Source: Burkholderiales bacterium
Lineage (GTDB): Bacteria; Pseudomonadota; Gammaproteobacteria; Burkholderiales; SG8-39
DNA: 64,000 bases
Assembly (NCBI GenBank): GCA_036381055.1
Contig: DASVDO010000009.1
Coordinates: forward strand, 1,628 to 65,627
Direction: 5' to 3'
Shown one piece after another: positions 4,876-61,435 of the stretch; positions within the stretch are counted from its first letter, which is position 1; each line of letters begins with the position of its first letter. A program made the translations under genes and the position numbers. The notes under the pieces were generated by a model, which saw only the letters and a program-made list of their open reading frames with translations, was not told the DNA's origin and made no database searches.

Positions 4876-5433
4876 TTGGGTAAAGAATCCCACTACAGCA
4901 GCAAGAAGGACCGGGTCTTCGTCCGCGCCATCCAGGGCCAGTACAGCCTGAAGGACGAGCTGGCGCGGCTGCGCTCGCTGCCGCGCGTCATCAAGGGCCG
5001 CGACCTGACCTTCAACGACGGCCCGCAGTCCTTCTCCAAGCACTTCATCGAGCCGGTGGACGGGCTGGCGCAGACGCTGCACGTGCACCTCGAGGAGTAC
5101 GCGCCGGGCGGGCGGACGCAGAAGCACGGCCACGTCAACGAGGCCGCCTTCTACATCCTCGACGGCAAGGGCTACGAGGTGCACGACGGCGTGCGCTACG
5201 ATTGGAGCGCCGGCGACGTGGCGATCGTGCACATGAACTGCGTGCACCAGCACTTCAACGCCGACCCGGACAAGCCGGCGCGCGCGCTGGTGCTCAAGCC
5301 CAAGCCGCTCATCATGTTCATGAACATGCTGTTCCAGCAGAGCGTGATCCCGCGGCCCAAGGAGCCGGCGACGCCGGCCGGCGTGGGCTTCGAGCCGAGG
5401 AACCTGGAAGACAACTTCAACCACGACGAATGA
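4876..5433 (+). CDS. Monocupin protein (metal-binding cupin; paralog of 9213-9788)
   Basis: Canonical cupin motif 1 [20 protein letters not shown] (G-x5-HxH-x3-E-x6-G) and motif 2 [19 protein letters not shown] start with an AAGGA RBS. Roughly three-quarters identical by eye to the 9213 product. Confidence 0.85.
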   Translation: MGKESHYSSKKDRVFVRAIQGQYSLKDELARLRSLPRVIKGRDLTFNDGPQSFSKHFIEPVDGLAQTLHVHLEEYAPGGRTQKHGHVNEAAFYILDGKGYEVHDGVRYDWSAGDVAIVHMNCVHQHFNADPDKPARALVLKPKPLIMFMNMLFQQSVIPRPKEPATPAGVGFEPRNLEDNFNHDE

Positions 5434-6545
5434 AGAACGCGACCGTTTCGGAAGATTTCGCCAAAAAGTTCGCCACCGAGAAGGAGACGCCCTACACGCG
5501 CTGGGTGAAGGGCGAGGGGCTTGACCTCATCAGCTCCTTCTACGTGCCGAGCCTGCACACGGTCGAGCTCAAGCCCTGGGCGCGGCGCGGCGGGCGCGCC
5601 GTGTTCATGAACCACGACGCCTCGCGCACCTCGAACGACTGCTACGTGTGCGAGATCCCGCCCGGCAAGAGCCTCGCGCCGCAGCGCCAGCTGTTCGAGG
5701 AGATGATCTACGTGCTCGACGGGCGCGGCTCGACCGCGGTGTGGAACGACGCCGGCAAGCGCGTGCAGTTCGAGTGGAAGGCGGGCGCCATCTTCGCCAT
5801 CCCGCTCAACTGCTGGCACCAGCACTTCAACGGCTCGGGCGAGAAGCCGGCGCGCTACGTCGCGGTGACCAACGCGCCGGTGATCATCAACGCCTTCGGC
5901 GACCTCGACTTCGTGTTCAACACCAAGTACGACTTCAAGGACCGCTTCGACGGCGAGCCCGAGTACTTCGCCAACAAGGGCGAGCAGAAGGGGCTGCTGC
6001 TCGACACCAACTTCGTCGCCGACGCGATCAACCTGCCGCTGTTCGCCGCCAAGGAGCGCGGCGCGGGCGGCGGGCACACGCGCTTCTCGATGGCCAAGGG
6101 CTCGATGAACAGCCACATCTCGCAGTTCCCGGTCGGCACGTACAAGAAGGCGCACGCGCACGGGCCGGGCGCGCACGTGATCGTGCTCTCGGGCGAGGGC
6201 TTCAGCCTGATGTGGCCCGAGGGCGAGGAGCCGCAGCGCTTCGACTGGCGCGAGGGAACGATGATCGTGCCGCCCAACATGTGGTTCCACCAGCACTTCA
6301 ACACCGGCACCACGCCGGCGCGCTACCTCGCCTTCAAGGCCGAGGGCGTGGCGATCCGCAACGCGCAGGGCGTGCCCAAGGCGTGGATCTCCAGGCGCCT
6401 GGGCGGCGACCAGATCGACTACGCCGACGAGCGCCCCGAGATCCGCCGCTGGTTCTCCGAGGCGCTCGCCAAGCACGGCCTCAAGTCCGCGATGGACAAG
6501 GCCTACGCCGCCGAGGCGGCCGAGCTACCGCAAAAAGCCGCCTAA
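5430..6545 (+). CDS. Bicupin protein (gentisate-dioxygenase-like fold; paralog of 13958-15043)
   Basis: Two cupin domains, each ending in an HQHFN..PARY signature. Domain 1 motif is G-x5-QRQ-x3-E (His ligands replaced); domain 2 is GTYKKAHAHGPGAH. ATGA overlap with the upstream cupin. Confidence 0.85.
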   Translation: MKNATVSEDFAKKFATEKETPYTRWVKGEGLDLISSFYVPSLHTVELKPWARRGGRAVFMNHDASRTSNDCYVCEIPPGKSLAPQRQLFEEMIYVLDGRGSTAVWNDAGKRVQFEWKAGAIFAIPLNCWHQHFNGSGEKPARYVAVTNAPVIINAFGDLDFVFNTKYDFKDRFDGEPEYFANKGEQKGLLLDTNFVADAINLPLFAAKERGAGGGHTRFSMAKGSMNSHISQFPVGTYKKAHAHGPGAHVIVLSGEGFSLMWPEGEEPQRFDWREGTMIVPPNMWFHQHFNTGTTPARYLAFKAEGVAIRNAQGVPKAWISRRLGGDQIDYADERPEIRRWFSEALAKHGLKSAMDKAYAAEAAELPQKAA

Positions 6546-7237
6546 ATGGTGACAGTCACCAATTCCAATTGGTGACTGTCACCATTTTCCCGCGCAGCTA
6601 GGCGTTTCGGCCTGCCGCGCGGCTTGCGCGGCTCGCCCATGCGGTGGCCGCTGTGAGTCGCGCGTCGGATTTCGTCGATCATTTCCTGCTTGAGCGGCAC
6701 GTCGCACAGCGCTTGATACGCCGCCGCACGGCGCTCGTCTGTCGTGGCGATCGCCAGGTACGCGGGGTGCGGCCTTACGAACGTGCCGATATCGGCGCCG
6801 GTGTTCGCCGCATGGCTGGACCACCGGTATTGCGAGGGATGGCTCACCATCGCCGCGCGCACGGGATTGAGCTCGATGTATCGGTAGCAGGCCAGGGCGT
6901 ACTCCTCGGTCGTGACGATCCCGGAATGCGGCCGGCCTTCCCAGAGCGTCCCGGTACGACCCAACTTCGCGTTGATGCGCTTCGCGTGACGCTGCGCGAG
7001 GTGCTTCATCAGAAGCGCGCATCCGGTGTTCTCGCGGGGGGTGACCAGCAGATGCACATGGTTGGTCATCAGGCAATACGCATGGACGAGGCATTGGAAC
7101 CGCGCCGCGTAGGTCCCCAGCGCCACCAGGTAGTCGACATAGTCGGCTTCCTCGAAGAAGCAGTCGGCGCGGTCGTGTCCCCGCTGGATGACGTGGAGAG
7201 CGAAGTCCGGAATGACGAGGCGGGCAGTCCGCGGCAT
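6542..7237 (-). CDS. REP-associated tyrosine transposase (RAYT; IS200/IS605-like Y1 HUH transposase family)
   Basis: HUH motif in LMTNHVHLLVTP and catalytic-Tyr region ACYRYIELNPVRA. No TnpB partner. The last ~15 codons (ENGDSHQLELVTVTI) are encoded by the REP doublet itself. Confidence 0.85.
   Translation of the reverse strand: MPRTARLVIPDFALHVIQRGHDRADCFFEEADYVDYLVALGTYAARFQCLVHAYCLMTNHVHLLVTPRENTGCALLMKHLAQRHAKRINAKLGRTGTLWEGRPHSGIVTTEEYALACYRYIELNPVRAAMVSHPSQYRWSSHAANTGADIGTFVRPHPAYLAIATTDERRAAAYQALCDVPLKQEMIDEIRRATHSGHRMGEPRKPRGRPKRLAARENGDSHQLELVTVTI
6544..6587. repeat. REP doublet (REPIN-like): two inverted 21-nt REPs
   Basis: AAATGGTGACAGTCACCAATT (6544-6564), CC, AATTGGTGACTGTCACCATTT (6567-6587). 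The arms are perfect reverse complements. Confidence 0.9.
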
Positions 7238-7276
7238 AACACCTTAAACGGCGCATGCCGCGGATTGGTTGACGTT

Positions 7277-7324
7277 AAATGGTGACTGTCACCCATTCGG
7301 ATATATGGTGACTGTCACCATTTT
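7277..7324. repeat. Two direct REP copies on the 5' side of the RAYT gene
   Basis: AAATGGTGACTGTCACCC (7277-7294) and ATATGGTGACTGTCACCATTTT (7303-7324). The second abuts the TCA (= TGA) stop of the Rieske gene. Confidence 0.9.
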
Positions 7325-8607
7325 CAGACGGTGGCGTGGGCGGCGCCGGGCTCGGGGAGAAGGGCGTCCTCGGCGGCGGCGGGGAAGGGCGCGCTGCGCG
7401 GCAGGAGCACCGAGGCGGAACGCACGCGCGTGTGCGCGGGATCGACCCCCGGCGGCTGGATGCCCTTCATCACGCCCTCGGCCGCGGCGATCAGCCGGCG
7501 GCGCGCCATGATGATGCCCTTGTCGGTCGGCACGAGGTTCTCGCGCGTGCGGTCCTGGATCGGGCCCATCGACTCCTGCACCGACGCGTCCTGCATGGCG
7601 AAGCCCTCGACCCCGGAGAAGGTGCGGCCTTCCTTCTGCGCCTTGCGGTCGATCAGGTAGTCGTTGTCCTTGTTGGCCACCGGCCGGAACGTGCCCGGGA
7701 TGAGCGGCGTGTGGATGCCCTTGCCGGCCGCCATCGCCTCGCGCTCTTCCCTGGTGAGCGGGCGCGTCGCGTGGTGGTTGGTGCTCCACGCCCAGCAGTT
7801 CTCGTCGTCGATCGGCACCCAGCAGTGGCCGCCGATCGGATGGTCGCCGCGCGGCGGGATCAGGGTGAAGCTCGGCATCACGTACTGCGTGATGCGCCAG
7901 TAGTAGCGGTCCTGCTCGGCGTTGCGGCGCGCGCCGATGTAGAGCCCGCCCGGCGACTCGACCACCTCGAAGTGCGGCGCCAGGTCGCGCAGGTTGTACT
8001 CGTGGCTCTTGGTCGCCGCCTTGAACATCGGGTCGACCTTCATGGTGAAGCGGTGCAGGAACGAGACGTGGCTCGAGTCGATGCCGCCTTCCATCGCCTG
8101 CAGCCAGTTGCACTCCTGCCAGCGCTTGGAGACGAAGCGGTGCGACGCGGGCACCATCGCCCACTCGTGCTCGGGCAGCGGCGGCCGCTGCTCGGGCGGG
8201 CCCATGTAGGTCCACAGCACGCCGCCGCGCTCGACCAGCGGGTAGCTCTTCAGCCGCATCCGCTCGCACAGCCTCGGGTTGTCCGGCTCGGAGGGGATCT
8301 CGACGCACTGGCCGGTGACGTCGTATTTCCAGCCGTGGTAGGGGCAGCGCAGCCCGCTCTCTTCATTGCGCCCGAACCACAGCGACACGCCGCGGTGCGC
8401 GCAGAACTCGTCGATCAGGCCGAGCCGGTTCTGCGTGTCGCGGAAGGCGATCAGCTTCTCGCCGAGGATGCGCACCCGCACCGGCGGGCAGTCGGGCTCG
8501 GGCAGCTCCTCGGCGAGCAGCGCCGGCAGCCAGTAGCGGCGAAACATCTCGCCCATCGGCGTGCCGGGACCGGTCTGAGTGAGGAACTGGTTTTGCTCCG
8601 CTCTCAT
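7324..8607 (-). CDS. Rieske [2Fe-2S] non-heme-iron oxygenase, alpha subunit (phthalate-family, alpha-only type)
   Basis: Rieske motif CAHRGVSLWFGRNEESGLRCPYHGW and mononuclear-iron motif NWLQAMEGGIDSSHVSFLH. 427 aa. Confidence 0.9.
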   Translation of the reverse strand: MRAEQNQFLTQTGPGTPMGEMFRRYWLPALLAEELPEPDCPPVRVRILGEKLIAFRDTQNRLGLIDEFCAHRGVSLWFGRNEESGLRCPYHGWKYDVTGQCVEIPSEPDNPRLCERMRLKSYPLVERGGVLWTYMGPPEQRPPLPEHEWAMVPASHRFVSKRWQECNWLQAMEGGIDSSHVSFLHRFTMKVDPMFKAATKSHEYNLRDLAPHFEVVESPGGLYIGARRNAEQDRYYWRITQYVMPSFTLIPPRGDHPIGGHCWVPIDDENCWAWSTNHHATRPLTREEREAMAAGKGIHTPLIPGTFRPVANKDNDYLIDRKAQKEGRTFSGVEGFAMQDASVQESMGPIQDRTRENLVPTDKGIIMARRRLIAAAEGVMKGIQPPGVDPAHTRVRSASVLLPRSAPFPAAAEDALLPEPGAAHATV

Positions 8608-8688: not shown

Positions 8689-9219
8689 ATGAGCGTCTCG
8701 CGCAACGATCCATGTCCCTGCGGCAGCGGCCGGAAATACAAGAAATGCTGTGGCGCGGTACTCGCCCTGAAGCCCGAGCGGCGCGAGTGCGGCACCTGCA
8801 CCGCCTGCTGCGACGGCTGGGTGGTGGGCACGATCCGCGGCCACGAGATGAAGCCGGGCACGCCGTGCCACTTCCGCGGCGAGGGCTGCTGCACCATCTA
8901 CGCCGAGCGGCCGCAGGAACCGTGCCGCAGCTTCGTCTGCGGCTGGCTGGCGCCGGGCAGCCCGTTCCCGGAGGCGTTCCGCCCGGACCGGCTGGGGGTG
9001 ATGATCATCGGCACGCGCTGGCGCGGCCGGCCGGCGTACATCCTGCGCCACGCCGGGCGCGACCCGGACGAGCGGCTGCTAAGCTGGATGCGCGGCTTCA
9101 GCGTGCGCACCGGCGCGCCGTTCTTCTACGAGCAGGCGGGCGAGCGCTTCGGCTTCGGGCCGCGCGAGTTCCAGCACGAGATGCTGGCGCGGCTGCAATC
9201 GGGTGAGAGGCTATGGTGA
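8689..9219 (+). CDS. SEC-C motif protein fused to a YkgJ-type CxxCxxCC cysteine-cluster (Zn/Fe-chelating) domain
   Basis: N-terminal [16 protein letters not shown] (SEC-C). This is followed by [11 protein letters not shown] and [28 protein letters not shown]. Overlaps the next gene by 7 nt. Confidence 0.75.
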
Positions 9220-9788
9220 AGGACAAGACCGAATCGCACTACCACAGCAAGAAGGACCGCATCTTCGTGCGCGGCATCCAGGGCCAGTACAGCCTGAAGG
9301 ACGAGCTGAAGCGCCTGCGCTCGATGCCGCGCGTGCGCAAGGGCCGGGAGCTCAAGTTCGTCGACGGGCCGCAGGCCTACAGCCGGCACTACGTCGAGCC
9401 GAAGGACGGCATCTCGCAGATGTTCCACCTGCACCTGGAGGAGTACGCGCCGGGCGGCAGGAGCCAGAAGCACGGGCACGTCAACGAGGCCGCCTTCTAC
9501 ATTCTCGACGGCAAGGGCTACGAGATTCACGACGGCGTGCGCTACGACTGGCAGGCGGGCGACGTGGCGATCGTGCACAACAACTGCGTGCACCAGCACT
9601 TCAACGCGAGCCCCGACAAGCCGGCGCGCGCGCTGGTGATCAAGACCAAGCCGATGTACATGTTCATGAACATGCTCTTCCAGCAGCTCGTCGAGCCGCG
9701 GCCCACCGAGCCGGCGCCCGGCGCCGGGGGCTACCGCGTGCGCGAGGCGGAGAGCAACTACAACCATTCCGAGGAAGGAGACCGCTGA
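9213..9788 (+). CDS. Monocupin protein (paralog of 4876-5433)
   Basis: [20 protein letters not shown] and [27 protein letters not shown]. Confidence 0.85.
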
Positions 9789-10402
9789 TGGCCTGGGACG
9801 AATCGCGGGCGTGGAAGAAGGGCCGGAACCACCAGAAGCTCTACCAGGCGCTGCTCGACGACGCCGCCGGCGCGCCGGCGCGCAACGCCAAGCGCAGGAA
9901 GATCGTCCACCCCGAGGACATGCCCTGGGAAATGTCGCGCCAGGGGCTGCTCAAGCACCTGATCAACGAGGCCATGAACACGCGCATGGAGACGGTCGAC
10001 GCCTACATGCAGATCATCCCGCCGGGCAGCCGCTCCGGTAAGCACCGCCACCTCGCCGAGGAATGCCTGTACGTGCTGGAGGGCCGCGGCTACGACCTGC
10101 ACCAGGACTGCGACGTCGAGATCACCGACACCTACCACTGGAAGCCGCAGGACGAGATCAAGCGCTACGAATGGGAGGCGGGCGACGTGATCTACATCCC
10201 GCCCAACACCATCCACCAGCACTTCAACGCGAGCCCCGACAAGCCGGTGCGGCTGATCTCGGCGATCAATCGCATCTACAAGGCCTGCGGGCTGAACGAC
10301 CTCGAGCAGATCGAGGACGCGCCGGAGTACGACCCGAACGTGGTGCTCACCGCCGAGCTGGTCGAGCAGTACCTCAAGGCGAAGAGCAAGGTGCCGGCTT
10401 GA
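9788..10402 (+). CDS. Monocupin protein, second type
   Basis: GSRSGKHRHLAEECLYVLEG (HxH-x3-E) and [29 protein letters not shown] junction with the upstream cupin. Confidence 0.8.
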   Translation: MAWDESRAWKKGRNHQKLYQALLDDAAGAPARNAKRRKIVHPEDMPWEMSRQGLLKHLINEAMNTRMETVDAYMQIIPPGSRSGKHRHLAEECLYVLEGRGYDLHQDCDVEITDTYHWKPQDEIKRYEWEAGDVIYIPPNTIHQHFNASPDKPVRLISAINRIYKACGLNDLEQIEDAPEYDPNVVLTAELVEQYLKAKSKVPA

Positions 10403-11625
10403 GCAGCGTCGCGGCCGCGCCGGCCAAGCCGGCGCATCGCTGGCGCGAGCTGTGGCTGATCACCGTCGGCCACGGGCTCACGCACTGGTACCCGGCGACC
10501 TTCTACCTGCTGCTGCCGCTGATCGCGCACGAGCTCGGGCTGTCGTACAGCCAGATCGGCCTGATCATGACCTGCCAGTACGTCGCCTCGGCGATCGCCA
10601 ACGTGTCGGGCGGCATCCTGGTCGACACGGTGGGGCGCAAGGGCCTGCTGATGGCGGTGTCGCTTTTCTGGGTCGGCTTCCCGTACCTGCTGATCGGCTT
10701 CACGCACAGCTACGCGATGCTGCTCGTCTGCGTGGCGCTGGTCGGCACCGGCAACAGCCTGTGGCATCCGACGGCCATCCCGACGCTCGGCAGCCGCTAC
10801 CCCGAGCGCAAGGGGCTGGTGCTGTCGCTGCACGGCATGGGCGGCAACGTCGGCGACGCGGTCGCGCCGATCGTGGTCGGCGCCGCGCTCGCGGCGTTCT
10901 CGTGGCGCGAGGTGGTGGCGTTCAACGTCGCGCCGGGCCTGGTGGTCGCGGTGCTGATGTTCGTGTTCCTCGGCTCGCTGCGCCTGGGGCAGAAGAAGCA
11001 CGCCGCCGAGGGGCAGTCGCTCGCCGAGTACGTGCGGGGGCTGCGCAGGCTGTTCGCCGACCGCTCGCTGATCCTGCTCTCGACCGGCTCGTCGTTCCGC
11101 ACCATGACGCAGACCGCGCTGCTCACCTTCCTGCCGGTCTACCTGGCGAACGACATGGGCTACGGCCCGGCGCTGGTCGGCGCGTGCCTGTTCGCCGTGC
11201 AGGCGGCGGGCTTCGCCGCGGCGCCGGTCGCCGGGCACCTCTCCGACCGCATGGGGCGCAAGAACATCCTGATGGGCGCCATGGCCTCCAGCGCCGTGGT
11301 GCTGGTGGCGATGGGCGCGATCGGCGGCTCGCCGCTGTTCGTCGTGCTGGTCGCGGTGCTCGGCTTCTTCCTCTACGCCACCCGGCCGGTGATCCAGGCC
11401 TGGCTGCTCGACGCGACGCCGCGCAACCTGGGCGGCTCGAGCATCGGCGTGCTGTTCGGCGCGCAGGCGGTCGGCGCCTCGCTCGGGCCGCTGTTCGGCG
11501 GCATGGTGGCGGACCGCTGGGGGCTGCTCGCCACGTTCTACTTCCTCGCCTTCACGATCGTCATCGCCAACCTGCTGGTGTTCTGGATCCCGGCGGTCGG
11601 GTCGCGCGAGCGCGGCGCCGCTTGA
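10399..11625 (+). CDS. MFS transporter
   Basis: About 12 predicted hydrophobic helices; the GGILVDTVGRKG loop is the MFS signature between TM2 and TM3. TTG start in a TTGA overlap; start uncertain. Confidence 0.8.
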   Translation: MSSVAAAPAKPAHRWRELWLITVGHGLTHWYPATFYLLLPLIAHELGLSYSQIGLIMTCQYVASAIANVSGGILVDTVGRKGLLMAVSLFWVGFPYLLIGFTHSYAMLLVCVALVGTGNSLWHPTAIPTLGSRYPERKGLVLSLHGMGGNVGDAVAPIVVGAALAAFSWREVVAFNVAPGLVVAVLMFVFLGSLRLGQKKHAAEGQSLAEYVRGLRRLFADRSLILLSTGSSFRTMTQTALLTFLPVYLANDMGYGPALVGACLFAVQAAGFAAAPVAGHLSDRMGRKNILMGAMASSAVVLVAMGAIGGSPLFVVLVAVLGFFLYATRPVIQAWLLDATPRNLGGSSIGVLFGAQAVGASLGPLFGGMVADRWGLLATFYFLAFTIVIANLLVFWIPAVGSRERGAA

Positions 11626-12452
11626 GGCCGCTCGCCGTCCTGGCGCTCGCCCTGCCGCTCGCCGCGCAGGCGGCGGAGGTCACCGTGATCCGGCCGAGCG
11701 CCTTCATCGGCGCCGACGCCGTCTACCACATCGCGCTCGACGGCCGGCCGCTGCGCGACATCGAGACGCGCCAGCACGTGCGCTTCGACGTGCCCGACGG
11801 CCGGCACGTGCTCGCGGTGCGCTGCCCGAAGCCGATGAATCTCGAGTACGCCGAGACGCGCATCGAGGAGCAGCTCGGGCCGGCGCCGGCGTTCTTCGTC
11901 ATCGAGCCGAAGTTCGACTGCGTGACGCTCACGCGCATCGACGCGCGCGCGGCGGCGCCGCTGCTCGGCAACACCCGCCTGCGCACCGACACGTCGACCC
12001 GCTACGAGGCGGGCAAGGTGCGGCCGAGCGCCGCGCTCGAGACCGCCTCGCCGCCCGCGCCGGCGGCCGCCGACGGCGCCGCCTCGCCGGGCGCCGCCTC
12101 GCCGAGCGCCGCCTGGGTGGAGGCGTTCAACAGCCGCGACCCGGCGCGCATCGCCGCGCTCTACGACAGCCACGCGGTGCTGATCGGCGCCGACGCGGCG
12201 CGGCCGGCGGTGGGCCGGGCGGCGATCGCCGCGTATTACGCCGGCGTGGCCGGGCGGCCGATGGACCGCGTGGCGCTCGGCGAGCACCAGGTGCGCGTCT
12301 ACGGCGACTGGGCGATCGACAGCGGCCTGTGCAACTTCTTCGAGGTGCGCGACGGCAGGTCCTCGGTGAGCGCCGCGCGCTACACGCTCGTCTGGCGCAG
12401 GCGCGACCGGCGATGGCTGATCGTGGAGCACCACTCGTCGCGCGTTCCTTGA
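11622..12452 (+). CDS. Secreted two-domain protein: N-terminal beta-rich (DUF2846-like) domain plus C-terminal SgcJ/EcaC (NTF2/SnoaL-like, DUF4440) domain
   Basis: Signal peptide LRPLAVLALALPLAAQAAE, an Ala/Pro linker, and C-terminal WVEAFNSRDPARIAALYDSHAVL...WLIVEHHSS. TTG start in a TTGA overlap. Confidence 0.65.
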   Translation: MRPLAVLALALPLAAQAAEVTVIRPSAFIGADAVYHIALDGRPLRDIETRQHVRFDVPDGRHVLAVRCPKPMNLEYAETRIEEQLGPAPAFFVIEPKFDCVTLTRIDARAAAPLLGNTRLRTDTSTRYEAGKVRPSAALETASPPAPAAADGAASPGAASPSAAWVEAFNSRDPARIAALYDSHAVLIGADAARPAVGRAAIAAYYAGVAGRPMDRVALGEHQVRVYGDWAIDSGLCNFFEVRDGRSSVSAARYTLVWRRRDRRWLIVEHHSSRVP

Positions 12453-13945
12453 TCCGCTTCCACGAAGGCGACGAGCCGCACTTCCACGACTGGTCGCCCG
12501 AGGCGCGCGCCGCGGCGGCGCAGGCGATCTGGCAGGCCGAGAACGTCGAGCTGACCACGGTCGGCATCGACATCGGCAGCTCGACCTCGCACCTGATGTT
12601 CTCGCGCGTGCACCTGCAGAGGAAGACGCAGCTCCTGTCGAGCGAGTTCGCGGTCGTCGGCCGCGAGGTGCTGTGGCGCTCGCCGATCCTGTTCACCCCC
12701 TTCCTGCCCGACTTCACCATCGACGCCGGGCGGCTGGGCGCCTTCATCGACGGCGCGTACGCCGAGGCCGGGCTCGACCCGCAGCGCATCGACAGCGGCG
12801 CGGTGATCCTCACCGGCGAGGCGATCAAGCGGCGCAACGCGCAGGCGATCGCAGGGCTGTTCGCGGCGCAGGCCGGCAAGCTGGTCTGCGCCTCCGCGGG
12901 GCACCACATGGAGTGCGTGCTCGCCGCGCACGGCGCCGGGGCGACGGCGATCTCGCGCCGCACGCACCGCCCGGTGCTGAACGTCGACATCGGCGGCGGC
13001 ACCACCAAGCTCGCGCTGATCGAGAACGGCGAGATCCGCTCGACCTGCGCCATCGCCGTGGGCGGACGGCTGATCGTGCAGGACGCCGCCGGGCGCCTCA
13101 CCCGCCTCGAAGCGTCCGCGCTGCAAGCGGCGCGCAGCCTCGGCACGGAGCTGGCGCTGGGCCAGGCGCTCACCGCCCCGGCGAAAGACAAGCTCGTCGA
13201 CGTCCTGGCGGAGGCCGTCCTCGAGCTGATCCTGGGCAGGCCGCTCGGCGCGCTGGCGAGGGAGCTGCTGCTCACCGGGCCGCTCGAGCGCACCGTCGAG
13301 CCGCACCTCGTCACTTTCAGCGGCGGGGTGTCGGAGTACCTGTTCGGCCGCGAGGCGCGCGGCTTCGGCGACATCGCGCAGCCGCTCGCCGAGCGCATGC
13401 GCGCGGCGCTCGCGCCGACCGGCAGGCTGCTCGACCCGGGGCAGGGCATACGCGCCACGGTGATCGGCGCCTCGCAGTTCACCGTGCAGCTCTCGGGCAA
13501 GACGATCCACCTGTCGCGCGCCGCGCGGCTGCCGCTGCGCAACGTGCCCGTGGTGTTCCCGCCGCTCGAGCTGGAGCGCGCCTTCGACGCCGCCGGCGTG
13601 GCGCGCGCCATCGGCGCGGCGCTGGCCAGGCTCGAGCTGCCGGACGACCAGCCGGCAGCGGTCGGCATCCGCTGGCGCGGCGAGCCGTACTATGCGAGGC
13701 TGCGCGAGCTCGCCGCCGGCATCGCGCAGGCGGCGCGCCCCGGGGCGCCGCTGGTGGTGCTGGTCGACCGCGACGTCGGCCGGCTGCTCGGCCACATCCT
13801 GGAGCAGGAGCTGGGCGTGGCCGGCGTGATCGCGATCGACGGCGTACAGCTGCGCGAGCTGGACTATGTCGACATCGGCGAGCTGCTGCAGCCGAGCGAG
13901 GTGGTGCCGCTGGTGATCAAGTCGTTGCTGTTTCCACTGCATTGA
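12449..13945 (+). CDS. EutA-family ASKHA ATPase (homolog of the ethanolamine ammonia-lyase reactivating factor), without eutBC
   Basis: Co-linear with EutA: VGIDIGSSTSHLMFSR, DSGAVILTGEA, ASAGHHMECVLAAHGAGA, LNVDIGGGTTK, VTFSGGVSEY, IRATVIGASQFTVQLSG, LPLRNVPVV, C-terminal VVPLVIKSLLFP. Start is either TTG 12449 (TTGA overlap) or ATG 12413. Confidence 0.85.
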   Translation: MIRFHEGDEPHFHDWSPEARAAAAQAIWQAENVELTTVGIDIGSSTSHLMFSRVHLQRKTQLLSSEFAVVGREVLWRSPILFTPFLPDFTIDAGRLGAFIDGAYAEAGLDPQRIDSGAVILTGEAIKRRNAQAIAGLFAAQAGKLVCASAGHHMECVLAAHGAGATAISRRTHRPVLNVDIGGGTTKLALIENGEIRSTCAIAVGGRLIVQDAAGRLTRLEASALQAARSLGTELALGQALTAPAKDKLVDVLAEAVLELILGRPLGALARELLLTGPLERTVEPHLVTFSGGVSEYLFGREARGFGDIAQPLAERMRAALAPTGRLLDPGQGIRATVIGASQFTVQLSGKTIHLSRAARLPLRNVPVVFPPLELERAFDAAGVARAIGAALARLELPDDQPAAVGIRWRGEPYYARLRELAAGIAQAARPGAPLVVLVDRDVGRLLGHILEQELGVAGVIAIDGVQLRELDYVDIGELLQPSEVVPLVIKSLLFPLH

Positions 13946-13957
13946 GGAGATAGACCC

Positions 13958-15043
13958 ATGGACGCAGGCGTGGCGCCGCGCATCGGCGTGGATCCTTATC
14001 TCGACTGGCTGAAGAACGAGCGCATCCCGGTGGTCGAGGACTTCGGCGTGCACCTGCCCGAGGTCGAGACCCGGCCGTGGCCGCGCTACGGCGTCGGCGG
14101 CGCGGCGGTGCACCTCAAGGGGCGCGGCGACTTCGTGTCGATGTTCGTGCTCGACCTCGCGCCGGGCGCCGCGAGCGAGCCGCAGCGCCACCTGTACGAG
14201 GAGGTGATCTACGTGCTGTCGGGCCGCGGCAGCACCACCATCGAGGCCGCCGACGGGCGCCGGCACAGCTTCGAGTGGGGGCCGCGCAGCCTGTTCGCGA
14301 TCCCGCTCAACACCCGCTACCGGCACTTCAACGGCAGCGGCGCCGAGCGCGCGCGCCTCGCCGTCACCACCAACCTGCCGGCGGTGCTGAACATGTTCCA
14401 CAACGAGGCGTTCGTGTTCGACAACCCGTTCCGCTTCGACGAGCGCCTGGGCGAGGCGAAGCACTTCGCCGGCGAGGGCGACTTCACCCCGGTGCGCCCG
14501 GGGCAGCACATGTGGCAGACCAACTTCGTGCCCGACCTGGCGGCGATCGCGCTGAAGGGCTGGGACGAGCGCGGCAAGGGCTCGAAGAACATCATGTTCA
14601 TCCTCGCCGACGGCACGATGCACGCGCACATCTCGGAGATGCAGCCCGGCAGCTACAAGAAGGCGCACCGCCACGGGCCCGACTTCCACGTGATGTGCGT
14701 CACCGGGCACGGCTACTCGCTGCTCTGGTACGAGGGCGAGGCCGACTTCCGCCAGGTGCGCTGGAAGCACGGCACGGTGTTCGCGCCGCCCGACCGCATG
14801 TTCCACCAGCATTTCAACACCAGCGAGCGGCCGGCGCGCTACCTCGCCACCGCCTTCGGCAGCCTGCGCTACCCGTTCACGGAGGCCAAGCGGCGCGCCC
14901 TGCTGGGCGGCGGCGACGGGCAGGGCGCGGTGGCGGTGAGCGTGAAGCTGGGCGGCGACCAGATCGAGTTCGAGGACCAGTCGCCGCGCATCGAGGCGCT
15001 GTACCGCGAGGAGCTCGCGCGCGCGAAGAATGCGCCCGCCTGA
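13958..15043 (+). CDS. Bicupin protein (paralog of 5430-6545)
   Basis: Domain 1 is G-x5-QRH-x3-E ... YRHFNGSGAERARL. Domain 2 is GSYKKAHRHGPDFH ... MFHQHFNTSERPARYL. Confidence 0.85.
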   Translation: MDAGVAPRIGVDPYLDWLKNERIPVVEDFGVHLPEVETRPWPRYGVGGAAVHLKGRGDFVSMFVLDLAPGAASEPQRHLYEEVIYVLSGRGSTTIEAADGRRHSFEWGPRSLFAIPLNTRYRHFNGSGAERARLAVTTNLPAVLNMFHNEAFVFDNPFRFDERLGEAKHFAGEGDFTPVRPGQHMWQTNFVPDLAAIALKGWDERGKGSKNIMFILADGTMHAHISEMQPGSYKKAHRHGPDFHVMCVTGHGYSLLWYEGEADFRQVRWKHGTVFAPPDRMFHQHFNTSERPARYLATAFGSLRYPFTEAKRRALLGGGDGQGAVAVSVKLGGDQIEFEDQSPRIEALYREELARAKNAPA

Positions 15044-16208
15044 GGTCGCGGTCGTCGGCGCCGGCCCGGTCGGGCTGACGGTCGCGCTGTCGCTCGCGCG
15101 CCAGGGCGTGGCGGTGCGCGTGCTGGAGGCCGAGCCGGCGCTCACCGAGGACCACCGCGCCGGATCGTTCCATCCGCCGACCCTCGAGATGCTCGCGCCG
15201 TTCGGCGTCACCGAGGCGATGCACCGCATCGGCATCAAGGTGCCGCGCTGGCAGATCCGCGACCGGCGCCAGGGCGTGATCGTGGAATGGGACCTGGGCC
15301 TGATCGCCGACCTGACGCCCTATCCGTACCGCTTCCACCTGGAGCAGTTCAAGCTCACGCCGATCCTGCTCGACAAGCTGCGCGCCTTCCCGCACGCCTC
15401 GGTCGCCTTCTCGACCGAGCTGCTCGACGCCGTCCCGCACGACGATTCGCTGACGCTGAAGACGAGCGCCGGCACGCTGCGCGCGTCCTGGCTCGTCGGC
15501 TGCGACGGCGGCCGCAGCACCGTGCGCCGGCTGATCGGCACCGAGTTCGAGGGCTTCACCTGGCCGGAGCGCTTCGTCGTGATCAGCACGCCGCACGACT
15601 TCGCGGCGCACGGCTTCACCTCGAACGCCTACGTCGCCGATCCGCGGGAATGGGCGGCGGTGTTCCACATGCCTGGCCTGTGGCGCATGGCGTTCCCGGT
15701 GCACCCGCACGAGGACGAGGCGCAGGTGCTCGACGCCGAAGCGGTCGAAGCGCGCCTGCAGCGCTTCCTGCCGCGGCCGCACCGCTACGAGGTGCTGCAG
15801 AAGGGCATCTACCGCGTGCACCAGCGGGTGGCGAGGGACTGGCGCCGGGGGCGCATGCTGCTCGCGGGCGACGCGGCGCACCTCAACAACCCGCTCGGCG
15901 CCTTCGGCCTGAACGGCGGGCTGCACGACGCGGTGATGCTGGGCGAGTACCTCGGGCGGGTGTGCCGCGGCGAGGCCGGCGAGGACCTGCTCGACCTCTA
16001 CGTGCGCAAGCGCCGCGCCGCCAACATCGAGTTCGTGCAGACGCAGTCGATCGGCAACAAGCGCATGCTCGAGGAAGCCGATCCGCAGAAGCGCGAGAAG
16101 ACCTTCGCCGAGCTGCGCCGCATCGCCGCCGACCGCGAGGCGGCGCGCGATTTCCTGCTGCGCTCGTCGATGATCTGGAGCGTGCGCCGGGCGGCGCAGG
16201 TCGCCTGA
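15030..16208 (+). CDS. FAD-dependent aromatic-ring monooxygenase (PheA/TfdB/UbiH family)
   Basis: GxGxxG motif VAVVGAGPVGLTVAL, a DG motif region CDGGRSTVR, and GD motif LLAGDAAHLNNPLGAFGLNGG. 14-nt overlap with the bicupin gene. Confidence 0.9.
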   Translation: MRPPEVAVVGAGPVGLTVALSLARQGVAVRVLEAEPALTEDHRAGSFHPPTLEMLAPFGVTEAMHRIGIKVPRWQIRDRRQGVIVEWDLGLIADLTPYPYRFHLEQFKLTPILLDKLRAFPHASVAFSTELLDAVPHDDSLTLKTSAGTLRASWLVGCDGGRSTVRRLIGTEFEGFTWPERFVVISTPHDFAAHGFTSNAYVADPREWAAVFHMPGLWRMAFPVHPHEDEAQVLDAEAVEARLQRFLPRPHRYEVLQKGIYRVHQRVARDWRRGRMLLAGDAAHLNNPLGAFGLNGGLHDAVMLGEYLGRVCRGEAGEDLLDLYVRKRRAANIEFVQTQSIGNKRMLEEADPQKREKTFAELRRIAADREAARDFLLRSSMIWSVRRAAQVA

Positions 16209-24366: not shown

Positions 24367-24955
24367 CGGCAGCTCGGAGCGCGCCCGCCAGCGCAGCGAG
24401 GCGCGCCGGCTCGACATCCTGCGCGCCGCCGCGCGCGTGTTCCGCCGCCGCGGCATCGCCGCCGCCGGCATGCGCGAGATCGCCGAGGAGGCCGGCCTCT
24501 CGCCCGGCAACCTGTACTACTACTTCGACAGCAAGGACCAGCTCCTGGTGTTCTGCCAGGAGCGCACGCTCGAGCGCCTGCTCGCGGCGCTCGACGCGGC
24601 GCGCGCCACGACGCCGTCCTGCGCCGGGCAGCTGCGCGCCGTGCTGCGCGCCCACGTGCACGCGCTGCTCGACGAGATGGAAGGCGCTACCGCGCACCTC
24701 GAGCTCGACTCGCTGCCCGAGGCGCTGCGCGCGCCGATGATCGCCAAGCGCGACCGCTACGAGCGCGCGCTGCGCTCGCTGGTCGCGCAGGGCGTGGCGC
24801 GCGGCGAGTTCGCGCCGTGCGACGCGGCGCTGGTGACGCGCGCCATGCTGGGCGCGGTGAACTGGACGGCGCGCTGGTTCCGGCCCGACGGCGCGCAAAG
24901 CGCCGCCGAGGTGGCCGACACCGTCTCCGCATACTTGGTGAAAGGACTGCAATGA
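24338..24955 (+). CDS. TetR/AcrR-family transcriptional regulator
   Basis: HTH region RLDILRAAARVFRRRGIAAAGMREIAEEAGLSPGNLYYYF. Start is GTG 24338 or TTG 24350 (uncertain). ATGA overlap with the next gene. Confidence 0.85.
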   Translation: MVQTLNRRSNGSSERARQRSEARRLDILRAAARVFRRRGIAAAGMREIAEEAGLSPGNLYYYFDSKDQLLVFCQERTLERLLAALDAARATTPSCAGQLRAVLRAHVHALLDEMEGATAHLELDSLPEALRAPMIAKRDRYERALRSLVAQGVARGEFAPCDAALVTRAMLGAVNWTARWFRPDGAQSAAEVADTVSAYLVKGLQ

Positions 24956-25434
24956 AGCGCGTGCCGCTGACGCTGCAGGTAAACGGCGAGGAGCACACCA
25001 TCTCCTTCGCGCCCTACAAGACGCTGCTGGAAGTGCTGCGCGAGGACCTCGGCCTCACCGGCACCAAGCACGGCTGCGAGCTCGGCGAGTGCGGCGCCTG
25101 CGCGGTGCTGGTCGACGGCAAGCCGCAGCTCTCGTGCCTGACGCTCGCGCTCGAGTGCGAGGGCCGCTCCGTCGAGACCATCGAAGGCGTGGCGCGCGGC
25201 CCCGAGCTGCATCCGCTGCAGGCGGCGTTCGCGGAGTTCGGCGGCTCGCAGTGCGGCTACTGCACGCCCGGGGTGATCATGACCGCCAAGGCGCTGCTCG
25301 ACCGCAACCCCAGCCCGACGCGCCAGGAGATCAAGGAAGCGACCTCGGGCAACCTGTGCCGCTGCACCGGCTACCAGCAGATCGTCGACGCGATCGAGGA
25401 CGCGGCGGCGAAGCTGCGCGCGGAGGCGCGATGA
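24952..25434 (+). CDS. [2Fe-2S]x2 small subunit of a xanthine-dehydrogenase-family molybdenum hydroxylase (HcrC/CoxS-like)
   Basis: [11 protein letters not shown] (plant-type cluster) and CGYCTPG...CRCTGY (second cluster). 160 aa. Confidence 0.9.
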
Positions 25435-27866
25435 GCAAGCGCTTCGACATCGTAGGCAAGCCGCGCCGGCGCGTCGACGGCCGCGCCAAGGTGACCGGGC
25501 AGCTTCGCTACGCCGACGACCTCTCCATGCCGCGCATGCTGCACGCGAAGCTCTTGAGGTCTCCGCATCCCCACGCCGTGATCGAGCAGATCGATACCGA
25601 CAAGGCGAAGGCGCATCCCGGCGTGCACCTCGTCCTCACCGGCGCCGATTTCCCGGTGCCGTTCGGCATCATGCCGGTGTCGGTGGACGAATATCCGCTC
25701 GCGCGCGAGCGCGTGCGCTACGTCGGCGACCCGGTCGCGGCGGTGATCGCGCGCGACGAGCAGACCGCCGTGGCGGCGCTCGACCTGATCGAGGTGAAGT
25801 ACCGGGTGCTGAAGCCGATCGAGAGCGCCGAGCACGGGCTCGCCAATCCCGAGCCGAGGATCCACGACTACGGCGAGCAGGGCAACATCCATCGCAACCA
25901 GTCCTACGAGTTCGGCGACGTCGCCGAGGCGCTCGCGAAGTCCGATTACGTCTTCGAGGATCTCTTCTACTACGAAGGCAACACGCACCTGCCGATGGAG
26001 CAGCAGGCCTCGCTCGCCTTCGTCGACCCGGAAGGCAAGCTGCAGATCTGCTCCAGCACGCAGAACCCGCACTACCTGCACCGCCAGCTCGCGCGCGTGC
26101 TGCGCGTCCCCGAGTCGCAGATCCGCGTCGTCGCGACGCCCAACGGCGGCGGCTTCGGCGGCAAGTGCGACCCGGGCGGCCACGAGTTCGTGGTGTGCAA
26201 GGCGGCGCTCGTGCTCGGCCGGCCGGTGAAGATCGGCCTGACGCGCGAGGAGGTGTTCTACGTGCACCGCGGCCGCCACCCGGTGCTGATGAAGATGAAG
26301 ACCGGGGTGACGAAGGACGGCAAGCTCACCGGCATGCACCTGCAGACGCTGCTCGACGGCGGCGGCTACGGCTCGCACGGCCCGGCGAGCACCTTCTACA
26401 CCGGCGTGCTGACGCCGGTCACGTACCACTATCCGCGCTTCAAGTTCGAGGCCTGCCGCGTCTTCACCAACAAGCCGGCGTGCGGCCCGAAGCGCGGCCA
26501 CGGCACGCCGCAGCCGCGCTTCGGCCAGGAGGTGCAGCTCGACAAGATCGCCGAGAAGCTCGGCATCGACCCCGCCGAGCTGCGGCTGAAGAATCTGACC
26601 AGGGAAAATTCCTTGACCGCGAGCTGGCTGAAGATCGGCTCGAACGGCCTCGCCGAGTGCATCGAGAAGGTGACCGCGATGTCGGGCTGGAAGGAGCGCC
26701 GCGGCAAGCTCGGCAAGGGGCGCGGCCTCGGTCTCGCGTGCAGCACGTACATGTGCGGCGCCGGCGTCGCCATCTACTGGAACAAGATGCCGCACTCGGG
26801 CGTGCAGATCCTGCTCGACCGCTCGGGCGCGGTGATCGTCTACTGCGGCGCCACCGAGCTCGGCCAGGGCTCCGACGACGTGCTCGCCGCCCTGGTCGCC
26901 GAGGCGCTCGGCGTGGAGACCGGCGCGGTGCGCCTGGTGACCGGCGACACCGGCATCACGCCGGTGGACCTCGGCTCGTACTCGAGCCGCGTCACGATCA
27001 TGGCCGGCAACGCCGCGCTGCAGGCGGCGGAACGCCTGCGCGCCGCGATCGCGTCGGCGGTCGCCGAGACCCTGGGAACGCTGCCCGACCGCGTGGTGTT
27101 CTCGCAGGGCCGAGTATTCGCCGCGGACAATTCCGGGCCGGGCATGAGCTTCGTCGAGGCCGTGCAGGCGGCGGAAGCGCGGCTCGGCACGCTCTCGGCG
27201 GTCGGCTCCTACTCCCCGCCCAGGCCGCCCGGCAGGTACAAGGGCGCCGGGGTGGGACCGTCGCCCGCCTACAGCTTCACCGCCTGCGTGGTGCAGGCCG
27301 AGGTCGACGAGCGCACCGGCTGGATCCACGTGCCCAGGGTCTGGATCGTCCACGACATCGGCCGCGCGCTCAATCCGACGCTCGCGCGCGGGCAGGTGAT
27401 CGGCGGCGTGTACATGGGCCTGGGCGAGGCGCTGATGGAGGAGCAGTCGTTCCGCCGCCTGCCGGAGAAGCTCTCCGGCGCGCTGGTGCACCGCGCGCCC
27501 TCGATGCTCGATTACAAGAGCCTCACGTCGCTCGACATGCCGGAGGTCGAGGTGGCGTTCGTCGAGGAGCCGGATCCGAACTGCCCGTACGACGCCAAGG
27601 AAGTCGGCCAGGGGCCGCTCCTGCCGGTGATACCGGCGCTGGCGAACGCGGTGTACGACGCGGTGGGCGTGCGCATCGACGAAGTGCCGATCACGCCCGA
27701 CAAGGTGCTGAGGGCTCTGGAGAGGAAGGCGAAGGGAGAGCCGGCGCGCGTCGGCCCGGAGCGTTTCCCCGCGGTGCCGTACCCGAAAGCCATGTTCGTG
27801 CTGCCGCCCTGGGAAGGCGGCGACGGCAACGAAAGCAAGCGCGATGCTGCGGCTGCCGTGGTTTGA
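25431..27866 (+). CDS. Molybdopterin-binding large subunit of a molybdenum hydroxylase (4-hydroxybenzoyl-CoA reductase alpha-like)
   Basis: 811 aa with aldehyde oxidase/XDH hammerhead and MoCo-binding blocks (GGGFGGK, GQGSDDVLAALVAE, GSYSSRVT, KEVGQGPLLP). ATGA overlap with the small subunit. Confidence 0.85.
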   Translation: MSKRFDIVGKPRRRVDGRAKVTGQLRYADDLSMPRMLHAKLLRSPHPHAVIEQIDTDKAKAHPGVHLVLTGADFPVPFGIMPVSVDEYPLARERVRYVGDPVAAVIARDEQTAVAALDLIEVKYRVLKPIESAEHGLANPEPRIHDYGEQGNIHRNQSYEFGDVAEALAKSDYVFEDLFYYEGNTHLPMEQQASLAFVDPEGKLQICSSTQNPHYLHRQLARVLRVPESQIRVVATPNGGGFGGKCDPGGHEFVVCKAALVLGRPVKIGLTREEVFYVHRGRHPVLMKMKTGVTKDGKLTGMHLQTLLDGGGYGSHGPASTFYTGVLTPVTYHYPRFKFEACRVFTNKPACGPKRGHGTPQPRFGQEVQLDKIAEKLGIDPAELRLKNLTRENSLTASWLKIGSNGLAECIEKVTAMSGWKERRGKLGKGRGLGLACSTYMCGAGVAIYWNKMPHSGVQILLDRSGAVIVYCGATELGQGSDDVLAALVAEALGVETGAVRLVTGDTGITPVDLGSYSSRVTIMAGNAALQAAERLRAAIASAVAETLGTLPDRVVFSQGRVFAADNSGPGMSFVEAVQAAEARLGTLSAVGSYSPPRPPGRYKGAGVGPSPAYSFTACVVQAEVDERTGWIHVPRVWIVHDIGRALNPTLARGQVIGGVYMGLGEALMEEQSFRRLPEKLSGALVHRAPSMLDYKSLTSLDMPEVEVAFVEEPDPNCPYDAKEVGQGPLLPVIPALANAVYDAVGVRIDEVPITPDKVLRALERKAKGEPARVGPERFPAVPYPKAMFVLPPWEGGDGNESKRDAAAAVV

Positions 27867-28842
27867 CTACCGCGCGCCGCGCTCGCTCGCCGAGGCGGCG
27901 CGCATCCTCGCGGGCGAGGGGCCGGCGGCGATGCCGATCGCCGGCGGCACCGACCTGCTGCCCAACATGAAGCGCCGCCACCAGACGCCGAAAGTGCTGG
28001 TCTCGCTCGGCCGGATCGAGGAGCTCAGGCGCTCGAACGGCAGCTTCGGCGCCGCTCTGACGCTCGCCGAGGTGGCGCGGAGCGAGCGCGCGCCGGCGGC
28101 GCTGCGCCAGGCGGCGGCGCAGGTCGCGACGCCGCACCTGCGCAACATGGGCACGCTCGGCGGCAACCTGTGCCTCGACACGCGCTGCACCTATTACAAC
28201 CAGACCTACGAGTGGCGCAAGGCGATCGGCTTCTGCCTCAAGAAGGACGGCCAGACGTGCTGGGTGGCGACCGCGAGCAAGCGCTGCGTGGCGGTCTCTT
28301 CCAGCGACACCGCGCCGGCGCTCATCGCCCTGAACGCCTCGGTGAGGCTGGTGAGCGCGAGCGGCGAGCGCGAGCTGCCGGTGGAGGCGCTGTACCGGAA
28401 CGACGGCATCGACTACCTGGCGCGCCGCCCCGACGAGATTCTCGCCGAGGTGAAAGTGCCCCAGGGGTGGCGAAGCGCGTACTGGAAGCTGCGGCGCCGC
28501 GGCGCCTTCGACTTCCCGGTGCTCGGCGTCGCGGTGGCGGTGCGCTTCGACGGCGACGTCGTGCGCGAGGCGCGCATCGCGCTCGGCGCGGTCGCCTCCC
28601 GGCCGTTCCTGGTGGAGAAGGCGGGCGAGCTCCTGGTGGGTCAAAGGCTGACCGACGAGGCGATCCGGCAGGCCGCCGAGCGGGTGGCGAACCGCGCCAA
28701 GCCGATGGACAACACCGACATGGACCTGTACTGGCGCAAGGAAGTGGCCGACGACTTCGCCGCCTACGCGCTGCGCGAGGTGCGCGGCGACGACATGCGC
28801 GAAACCCGCCAGCGCATCAATCGGTTTACAGTAGAGCGTTGA
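27844..28842 (+). CDS. FAD-binding medium subunit carrying a Cys-rich insertion (HcrB-type, putative extra [4Fe-4S])
   Basis: FAD motif PIAGGTDLLP. Insertion GGNLCLDTRCTYYNQTYEWRKAIGFCLKKDGQTCWVATASKRCV with Cys115-x15-Cys131-x7-Cys139-x8-Cys148. Confidence 0.8.
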   Translation: MLRLPWFDYRAPRSLAEAARILAGEGPAAMPIAGGTDLLPNMKRRHQTPKVLVSLGRIEELRRSNGSFGAALTLAEVARSERAPAALRQAAAQVATPHLRNMGTLGGNLCLDTRCTYYNQTYEWRKAIGFCLKKDGQTCWVATASKRCVAVSSSDTAPALIALNASVRLVSASGERELPVEALYRNDGIDYLARRPDEILAEVKVPQGWRSAYWKLRRRGAFDFPVLGVAVAVRFDGDVVREARIALGAVASRPFLVEKAGELLVGQRLTDEAIRQAAERVANRAKPMDNTDMDLYWRKEVADDFAAYALREVRGDDMRETRQRINRFTVER

Positions 28843-34197: not shown

Positions 34198-34257
34198 TTT
34201 CGCGATTGAAATTTCCTTCTCCTCGATTACAGTAGGCGCTTCAACGAGGAGAGCGGA

Positions 34258-34722: not shown

Positions 34723-34731
34723 GAGGCTGCC

Positions 34732-44491: not shown

Positions 44492-44558
44492 GATAGGCTC
44501 CTCCTGTTCCGGCCGAGTATGCCTTTGTGCTAGCCTGCCCGCAAAGGAGGAGGAGACC

Positions 44559-47397: not shown

Positions 47398-47496
47398 GGC
47401 GGGGCCGCTGCCCCTGGGCGGTGGGAGTCGTCCCATTTTCCGCGGTGCGGCACTTGTGGTTTACTTCCCATCTGCGGCAGCGCAAGATTTTTGCCC

Positions 47497-61414: not shown

Positions 61415-61435
61415 GGGATCAAAAAGTATAACCGC

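Follow-up and report, generated by a model that had tools for sequence, protein, structure and literature searches.

The 64-kb stretch of Burkholderiales DNA analysed here over its whole length (contig DASVDO010000009.1; G+C about 70%; hereinafter the window) encodes, at 12449–13945 on the plus strand, a 498-residue ATPase which by its sequence is a member of the Pfam EutA family and of the ASKHA superfamily, and which very probably is functionally partnered with the bicupin encoded directly downstream of it (13958–15043, plus strand, 361 residues) rather than with a B12 system. From sequence comparison and gene context we infer that the subfamily to which this protein belongs, termed here the bicupin-linked clade, no longer serves ethanolamine ammonia-lyase (EAL) and has the adjoining bicupin as its dedicated partner. 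A first-pass annotation of this stretch had proposed a EutA paralogue with a client other than a B12 enzyme; the comparative genomics presented below supports that part of the proposal, while the nature of the service rendered to the client can be addressed only by deduction. The subfamily is so far undescribed: literature searches recovered nothing on EutA paralogues with cupin partners ("EutA-like" returned 0 papers) and nothing relevant on reactivating factors in combination with dioxygenases or on EutA in combination with Sterolibacterium, the combination of EutA with aromatics being too unspecific a query.

Linkage of the ATPase to a bicupin

Genomic loci were fetched via the ATPase protein (42 loci) and via the family alignment (80 loci), and were searched with the proteins encoded around the ATPase in the window. 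A bicupin gene lies within 300 bp of the ATPase in 93 of the 127 copies so recovered and, beyond that distance, within 3 kb in 11 more; another 11 copies stand at a contig edge, and for 12 no bicupin was found nearby. Three of these last 12 are true eut operons and one (L025; loci carry the prefix L) has a frameshifted bicupin that was missed by the length filter. At L024, L059, L063, L065, L069, L091 and L123 no bicupin was detected within 6–8 kb, including by hidden Markov model search. In the reciprocal search, starting from the bicupin, the ATPase is found within 400 bp in 72 of the 77 loci and within 2 kb in one more, with none detected within 4 kb at L127 and L191. Whether the clade has conserved cupin neighbours, a question raised in the first-pass annotation, is hence answered in the affirmative.

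The pair is found in seven or more phyla and occurs in Beta-, Alpha- and Gammaproteobacteria, Eremiobacterota, Actinomycetota, Chloroflexota (including SAR202 and Dehalococcoidia), Desulfobacterota-type lineages, Binatia and Syntrophales. Across these the order of the two genes flips among loci, two or three pairs occur at L013, L030 and L122, and two bicupins at L014. Transporters recur near the pair; no other neighbour is nearly as conserved as the bicupin. Further, the pairwise distances among the ATPases are correlated with those among the bicupins (r = 0.71, as against a maximum of 0.27 in 500 permutations), a pattern of co-divergence that fits co-inheritance and possibly co-evolution of the two proteins.

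The bicupin itself displays two Cupin_2 stretches, and its AlphaFold2 (AF2) model, with a mean predicted local distance difference test score (pLDDT) of 84, consists of two β-barrels. Foldseek searches with this model recover generic bicupins at template-modelling scores of about 0.46–0.47, namely oxalate decarboxylase, MncA, vicilins, gentisate and salicylate dioxygenases and quercetinase, and its homologues go by no database names other than "cupin domain-containing" or "hypothetical". No NCBIfam model matches it at cut-off, the weak matches being to the 5-aminosalicylate and gentisate 1,2-dioxygenases, and the similarity to gentisate dioxygenase (GDO), salicylate dioxygenase and MabB falls short of full length (phmmer E-value of 5e-5 over 75 residues; 27 versus 650 bits for MabB).

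Inspection of the alignment of 109 partner bicupins directs attention to the C-terminal cupin. Its motifs H237-R-H239-GPDF-H244 and H283-Q-H285-F-N287 (14666–14818, plus strand), with H224 just upstream, align to the HxH and HxHxN motifs of the gentisate dioxygenase 3bu7. The histidines H237, H239, H283 and H285 are kept in 106–108 of the 109 proteins, and the larger set of E106, D193, H224, H237, H239, H283, Q284, H285 and N287 is 94–100% conserved; H222 and H244 are conserved within a crown group of bicupins, outside which the corresponding N-terminal cupin set, Q76/H78/E82/H123, is degenerate. Because the histidine set is conserved in the C-terminal cupin and the N-terminal one is degenerate, the metal site probably resides in the former; as judged from sequence, it is likely to be of the HxH...H type that is typical of 3-His Fe(II) dioxygenases. 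In its bicupin fold and in a 3-His motif (H237, H239 and H285) that is conserved and aligned to 3bu7, the protein agrees with the GDO type, and the bicupins occur in aromatic-acid catabolic clusters.

Relationship of the ATPase to EutA

The ATPase gene begins with a TTG codon that overlaps the TGA stop of the upstream gene as TTGA, and the public gene call on the same contig (P0001) is identical in length to the 498-residue protein; an alternative in-frame ATG is present at 12413, and its use would leave the other results unaffected. Residues 34–495 match positions 2–474 of the 475 in the Pfam EutA profile PF06277 (E-value 1.6e-112, 377 bits), which bears out the earlier claim of co-linearity with EutA along the whole length, and the alignment with E. 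coli EutA covers 481 residues at 36% identity (E-value 1.5e-69, 233 bits). Other ASKHA families, i.e., FtsA, MreB, Hydantoinase_A and Ppx-GppA, give local matches only, around the phosphate-2 loop. Since the PF06277 match is full-length and those to the other families are local, the similarity to EutA exceeds the generic ASKHA fold, and the concern that it might be confined to that fold, voiced in the first-pass annotation, falls away.

All three motifs previously quoted for the protein were recovered: the ASKHA phosphate-1 motif VGIDIGSSTSH (residues 38–48; 12560–12592, plus strand), in which D41 is universal and H48 is specific to the clade, being replaced by Gln in eut-type EutA; the phosphate-2 motif LNVDIGGGTTK (residues 177–187; 12977–13009, plus strand), in which D180, G182–G184 and T185 are universal; and the C-terminal motif VVPLVIKSLLFP at residues 485–496. 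The protein thus possesses the phosphate-1 (DxG), phosphate-2 (DxGGGT) and adenosine motifs along with the two-lobed actin-like fold that define the ASKHA superfamily. In the EutA family D41, E155, D180, G182–G184, T185 and G292–G293 are invariant, and the alignment contains in all about 50 positions, including the ATP motifs, that are invariant across the whole family, from which it follows that the ATPase machinery and overall architecture have been kept. Foldseek searches with the AF2 model (pLDDT 82) match ASKHA folds only (Ppx/GppA, PilM, HgdC and MreB), and a sequence search of the Protein Data Bank found no EutA structure; as the Foldseek matches of both the ATPase and the bicupin are generic, no function can be transferred from them.

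The ATPase scores below all four NCBIfam EutA equivalogs (NF007991–NF007994; 295 versus 598, 279 versus 769, 230 versus 799 and 192 versus 952 bits) and is 34–36% identical to the EutAs adjoining eutBC. In a neighbour-joining tree of 235 family sequences, computed with no bootstrap and thinly sampled on the eut side (four eut-type sequences only), the four eut-operon EutAs form a monophyletic group apart from all the other sequences, the ATPase among them. These four (E. coli EutA and the proteins of L037, L038 and L040) share C201, C297, C343 and H344 (window numbering). In place of these the bicupin-linked clade has A, Y, Q and F, respectively, each in between 100 and 103 of its 103 members. 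The four residues may mark a site in true EutA that is specific to cobalamin or to EAL; they are not known to have an assigned role. The clade for its part has H48, C147 and H152 as specific invariants, in addition to the universal E155. C147 and H152 stand beside E155 in the segment VCASAGHHME (12887–12916, plus strand) and are found in 103 of 103 clade members and in none of the four eut-type proteins, which have Val and Pro, respectively, at these positions. In score, gene context, clade and signature residues alike, the ATPase differs from an EAL-reactivating factor, and a placement apart from eut-operon EutA, the outcome on which the first-pass annotation had made its proposal depend, is what was found.

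The genomic context points the same way. With EutB, C, L, K, H, E, G, Q, T, P, M, N, S and D of E. coli as tblastn queries, the best E-value obtained in the window was 0.17; EutJ returned, as expected, only a local ASKHA match on the ATPase gene itself; and Pfam scans of about 50 open reading frames (ORFs) across the 64 kb detected no eut, microcompartment or cobalamin families. The lack of eut, shell and cobalamin genes reported earlier is hence confirmed. The partner bicupin was also considered as a EutQ-like cupin and rejected as such, E. coli EutQ matching nothing in the window. Neither eutB nor eutC occurs within 6–8 kb at any bicupin-linked locus, whereas at the Clostridiales loci L037, L038 and L040, whose true EutAs are 34–35% identical to the ATPase, eutB, eutC, eutL and eutH lie within 5 kb and the bicupin is absent. 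These absences pertain to the 64-kb window, out of a contig of about 133 kb, and to the 6–8 kb around the linked loci; eutBC may lie farther away in the genome.

The clade is also distinguished by an N-terminal extension of 30–40 residues that true EutA does not possess. This contains an H-x5-H-x-H motif, absent from eut-operon EutA and represented in the window by H5, H11 and H13 (HEGDEPHFH, residues 5–13; 12461–12487, plus strand) in an N-terminus that reads (M)IRF-HEGDEPHFH-DW. The motif is flanked by acidic residues and mostly placed immediately after the initiator Met, e.g., MHDLEFEHLH and MHELDFEHEH. It is present in 90 of the 101 clade members whose sequence reaches far enough upstream, as compared with 0 of 1016 control windows of the same proteins; a tolerance of one in the spacing raises the count to 95 of 101. 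The motif is invariant in an alignment of 61 close homologues; in several members (L029, L013 and L097) it is replaced by long His/Asp tails at either end. In the AF2 model residues 1–6 have low pLDDT and a helix spans residues 17–31, the tail before it being predicted to be flexible. Three of the loci with no bicupin nearby, L063, L065 and L123, also have versions without the third His of the motif.

A search of 1.84 billion representatives at 50% identity recovered 803 EutA-family clusters at E-value ≤ 1e-30. The best 150 of these 803 score 301–515 bits against the ATPase and are therefore closer to it than is E. coli EutA at 233 bits, so that the family is large on its non-eut side; by this measure of sequence similarity, the non-B12 side may form a large part of the EutA family. 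One bicupin-linked subclade, marked by an N-terminal "GGRIFF", has bicupins about 30% identical to that of the window. Additionally, a scan seeded by the representatives nearest the eut group uncovered another EutA-family lineage, from Asgard archaea, Desulfobacterales and Binatia (L204–L241, L243, L244, L250, L259 and L263), at whose loci there is no eutBC, no bicupin and no universally conserved neighbour nearby; two tandem copies occur in it at L231, L234 and L250. Given this lineage with neither partner, the genomic contexts of the EutA family are of three kinds or more. Such lineages, the N-terminal His motif and the second bicupin paralogue described below go beyond what the first-pass annotation had noted.

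Gene neighbourhood in the window

In the window the pair belongs to a string of plus-strand genes, which comprises a major facilitator superfamily (MFS) transporter (10399–11625), a DUF4440/SnoaL (NTF2-like) protein (11622–12452) with a signal-peptide-like N-terminus (MRPLAVLALALPLAAQA, followed by AE), the ATPase, the bicupin and a FAD-dependent aromatic hydroxylase (FAD_binding_3, MhpA-like; 15030–16208), and in which starts and stops overlap or nearly abut. The ATPase had earlier been described as lying between a secreted NTF2-like protein and a bicupin, and these coordinates agree with that description. Between the ATPase stop and the bicupin start there are 12 nt, and there is a 14-nt overlap of the hydroxylase gene with the bicupin stop, for which reason it is assigned to the same operon; no terminator-like site was found between 11.6 and 16.2 kb. 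The MFS/DUF4440 and DUF4440/ATPase junctions are two successive TTGA overlaps with TTG starts at both, which suggests translational coupling along the operon. The nearest relatives are Burkholderiales metagenome-assembled genomes (MAGs). The DUF4440 gene upstream of the ATPase is conserved only in the closest relative, and the FAD hydroxylase downstream of the bicupin is kept at L004 and L005.

Upstream of this string are two monocupins (9213–9788 and 9788–10402, plus strand), which are occasional companions of the pair at other loci, a SEC-C protein and, transcribed divergently, a Rieske oxygenase of the LigXa type (7324–8607, minus strand). Genes for a DUF427 protein, a short-chain dehydrogenase/reductase and a tripartite ATP-independent periplasmic (TRAP) transporter follow downstream on the opposite strand. 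The surroundings are those of an aromatic-compound catabolic neighbourhood. Across loci the recurrent neighbours of the pair include a class II aldolase-type protein similar to 3,4-dihydroxyphthalate decarboxylase (20 loci), Rieske oxygenases (16 loci) and UbiD-family decarboxylases (12 loci). A recurrent ABC transporter was considered as a possible metal transporter; it is PotA/PhnS-like and ambiguous, and was not used as evidence.

A second cupin module, with no ATPase of its own, is located at 4876–6545 (plus strand) and consists of a monocupin, which shares 76% identity with that at 9213–9788, and a paralogue of the partner bicupin at 40% identity. It adjoins an IS200-like Y1 transposase gene (6542–7243, minus strand). 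One ATPase may serve both bicupins, or else the second module may be a recent duplication or insertion.

Aromatic-compound oxygenases are abundant over the whole window, which also encodes a second LigXa-type Rieske oxygenase (60110–61435, minus strand) and an HpaB-type 4-hydroxyphenylacetate 3-hydroxylase (53887–55422, plus strand). There are two sets of molybdenum hydroxylase genes of the xanthine/CO dehydrogenase family, both on the plus strand: one with [2Fe-2S], molybdenum cofactor (MoCo) and FAD subunits (24952–28842), and another in which a SoxY-like gene comes after the [2Fe-2S] and MoCo subunits (34210–37244, the SoxY-like gene at 36864–37244); a TetR regulator and a resistance-nodulation-division efflux pump are encoded between and around them. 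Downstream of TRAP transporter genes (DctP, 44400–45584; DctQM, 45610–47397) there is a 500-residue ORF (47398–48900, plus strand) with a strong coding signal and no Pfam match at E-value ≤ 1e-5, which is overlapped by a weakly matching methylenetetrahydrofolate reductase-like gene (48875–49732, plus strand).

Proposed function and comparison with known systems

True EutA uses ATP to pry dead, tightly bound cobalamin from its enzyme, and reportedly reactivates EAL by an ATP-dependent exchange of that cofactor. This family precedent, taken together with the gene linkage and the N-terminal His motif, allows a client and a cofactor exchange to be deduced for the bicupin-linked clade too. ATP binding and hydrolysis by the ATPase would open the bicupin client, whose metal ion would then be loaded or exchanged by analogy with EutA; in a 3-His site of the gentisate-dioxygenase type this ion would most plausibly be Fe(II). 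The flexible His-rich tail could hold and hand over the metal or, alternatively, dock, and the bicupin so activated would probably be a ring-cleaving or related oxygenase of an aromatic-acid catabolic operon, acting together with the downstream FAD hydroxylase. Cupins are said to be capable of trapping the wrong metal upon folding. On balance we favour some form of chaperone or reactivase function; the specific version with ATP-driven maturation or reactivation of the bicupin metal centre by metal exchange is put forward tentatively, as something short of an even chance. It is rather doubtful that the clade represents the first ASKHA-fold, ATP-driven insertase or exchanger of metal centres, with a mononuclear-metal cupin oxygenase as its client.

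Several observations weigh against metal exchange. The "GGRIFF" subclade has no N-terminal His and is still linked to the bicupin, so that the tail cannot be universally required, and a His motif or His-rich N-terminus is found in 50 of the 122 independent 50%-identity representatives. Among these 122 there is no association between the tail and C147/H152 (26/24 versus 35/37, Fisher p = 0.85), and a single metal site formed by the two was rejected for want of such co-variation. The pair has no consistent metal-transport or metal-storage neighbour at the loci surveyed, and no ATPase–bicupin fusion was found, the ten longest representatives containing the EutA domain only; a long ORF across both genes at L025 was not trusted as a fusion, since it comes from a frameshifted long-read MAG. 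Moreover, all NTP-dependent metallochaperones known to us are P-loop NTPases, with no ASKHA precedent.

The tight operonic pairing and the co-divergence would equally suit two subunits of one enzyme, and the ATPase could accordingly be imagined as a catalytic protein that activates a small molecule by phosphorylation, adenylation or carboxylation in the manner of ASKHA kinases or hydantoinase/oxoprolinase-type enzymes, with the bicupin performing the coupled next step. The weak local matches to Hydantoinase_A and Ppx-GppA and the exopolyphosphatases recovered by Foldseek are compatible with this, as are the aromatic-acid catabolic enzymes among the neighbours (UbiD-type and class II aldolase-type decarboxylases, hydroxylases). 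We nevertheless regard it as unlikely: the co-linearity with EutA is full-length and takes in the EutA-specific C-terminal α/β domain, the only characterised member of the family acts on a protein, a flexible His-rich tail is typical of metal handling and not of kinases, and no enzyme combining ASKHA and cupin components is known to us or was found in the literature. A strict reactivase that delivers no metal draws on the same linkage evidence (93/127, 72/77, r = 0.71). It would rescue a bicupin inactivated in turnover, by ejecting oxidised Fe(III), a dead-end product or an inhibitor, or would aid folding or oligomer assembly, with the His tail merely docking at the active site. EutA and DdrAB release damaged cofactors, which makes this the closest analogy to them, and Fe(II) ring-cleavage dioxygenases are subject to inactivation by oxidation and have rescue proteins such as the XylT-type ferredoxins; bicupin-linked members without His tails would also find a place here. 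Yet the ATPase has no redox cofactor motif and a single invariant Cys, C147, and sequence alone does not separate such a reactivase from metal exchange; we hold it to be decidedly unlikely.

An ordinary EutA acting on an EAL encoded elsewhere, its position next to a cupin being incidental, is very improbable. The full-length Pfam match and the database label "ethanolamine utilization protein EutA" borne by homologues would speak for it, and the window covers 64 kb of the genome. They are outweighed by the scores below the four equivalog cut-offs, the position outside the eut-operon group, the replacement of the eut-type conserved residues, the conserved, reciprocal and cross-phylum bicupin neighbour, and the absence of eutBC from every linked locus as opposed to its presence within 5 kb at true EutA loci. 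We also considered an ATP-driven electron transfer of the HgdC type, in view of weak BcrAD_BadFG matches in some homologues and the Foldseek match to HgdC; with only one invariant Cys, a bridging [4Fe-4S] cluster of the HgdC kind is unlikely.

The name EutA is almost certainly wrong for the bicupin-linked clade. Annotation pipelines label thousands of such proteins "ethanolamine utilization protein EutA", a misnaming that could yield false predictions of ethanolamine or B12 metabolism for soil and groundwater bacteria. If maturation or rescue of a cupin metal centre is indeed the function, the reactivase concept would extend past cobalamin and the metallochaperones would be enlarged by a new fold; what the B12 reactivases do, "pry open and swap the cofactor", would then have been put to use again on simple metal ions. 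Such a function would further explain how the His-rich bicupins of aromatic-compound degradation acquire the right metal, and would mean that some cupin enzymes cannot get or keep it unaided. The pair constitutes a compact two-gene system that is directly testable in cultured strains, being present in Pigmentiphaga soli JCM 17666 and Phyllobacterium trifolii CECT 7015.

Among known systems, HypB, UreG, CooC and CobW/COG0523 resemble the ATPase in being nucleotide-hydrolysing accessory proteins whose genes adjoin that of a metalloenzyme, and the His-rich helpers UreE, HypA and SlyD in the matter of the His-rich tail. Many clade members begin with MH(D/E), which resembles the N-terminal MHE of HypA. 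At the level of sequence, the clade has the two features expected of a metallochaperone, i.e., a putative metal-binding His motif (90/101) and an adjoining gene for the putative client. However, HypB, UreG, CooC and CobW have the P-loop SIMIBI fold and the ATPase that of the ASKHA superfamily, so that the resemblance is a functional analogy only.

On the client side, the gentisate, salicylate and 5-aminosalicylate 1,2-dioxygenases share with the bicupin its fold, the HxH...HxHxN alignment to GDO 3bu7 and the aromatic-acid setting. They differ in that the similarity is weak and partial and in that the complete His site of the bicupin is in the C-terminal and not the N-terminal domain; further, we know of no GDO that requires an ATPase partner. 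The XylT-type ferredoxins offer a parallel in being dedicated, co-encoded rescue factors of an oxygen-sensitive Fe(II) enzyme, catechol 2,3-dioxygenase, but XylT is a small [2Fe-2S] electron donor that makes no use of ATP and is unrelated to the ATPase in fold and sequence.

Closer in kind are DdrAB/PduGH and GlmL/MutL, which are dedicated, operon-encoded ASKHA-type ATPases servicing the cofactor of one enzyme and whose clients are, to our knowledge, all B12 enzymes; the sequence similarity to them is marginal (TIGR04491 PduG, E-value 0.09), and the ATPase is a single polypeptide with no β subunit. EutA itself differs in lacking the bicupin partner, the N-terminal His3 tail and the H48/C147/H152 set of the ATPase, which in turn has no eutBC, microcompartment or cobalamin neighbours. 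Nevertheless, the two belong to the same Pfam family and are co-linear, and the ATPase has retained the C-terminal domain specific to the family as well as all the ASKHA motifs for ATP. By analogy, it probably works in a EutA-like manner, performing ATP-driven work on the tightly bound cofactor of a partner enzyme.

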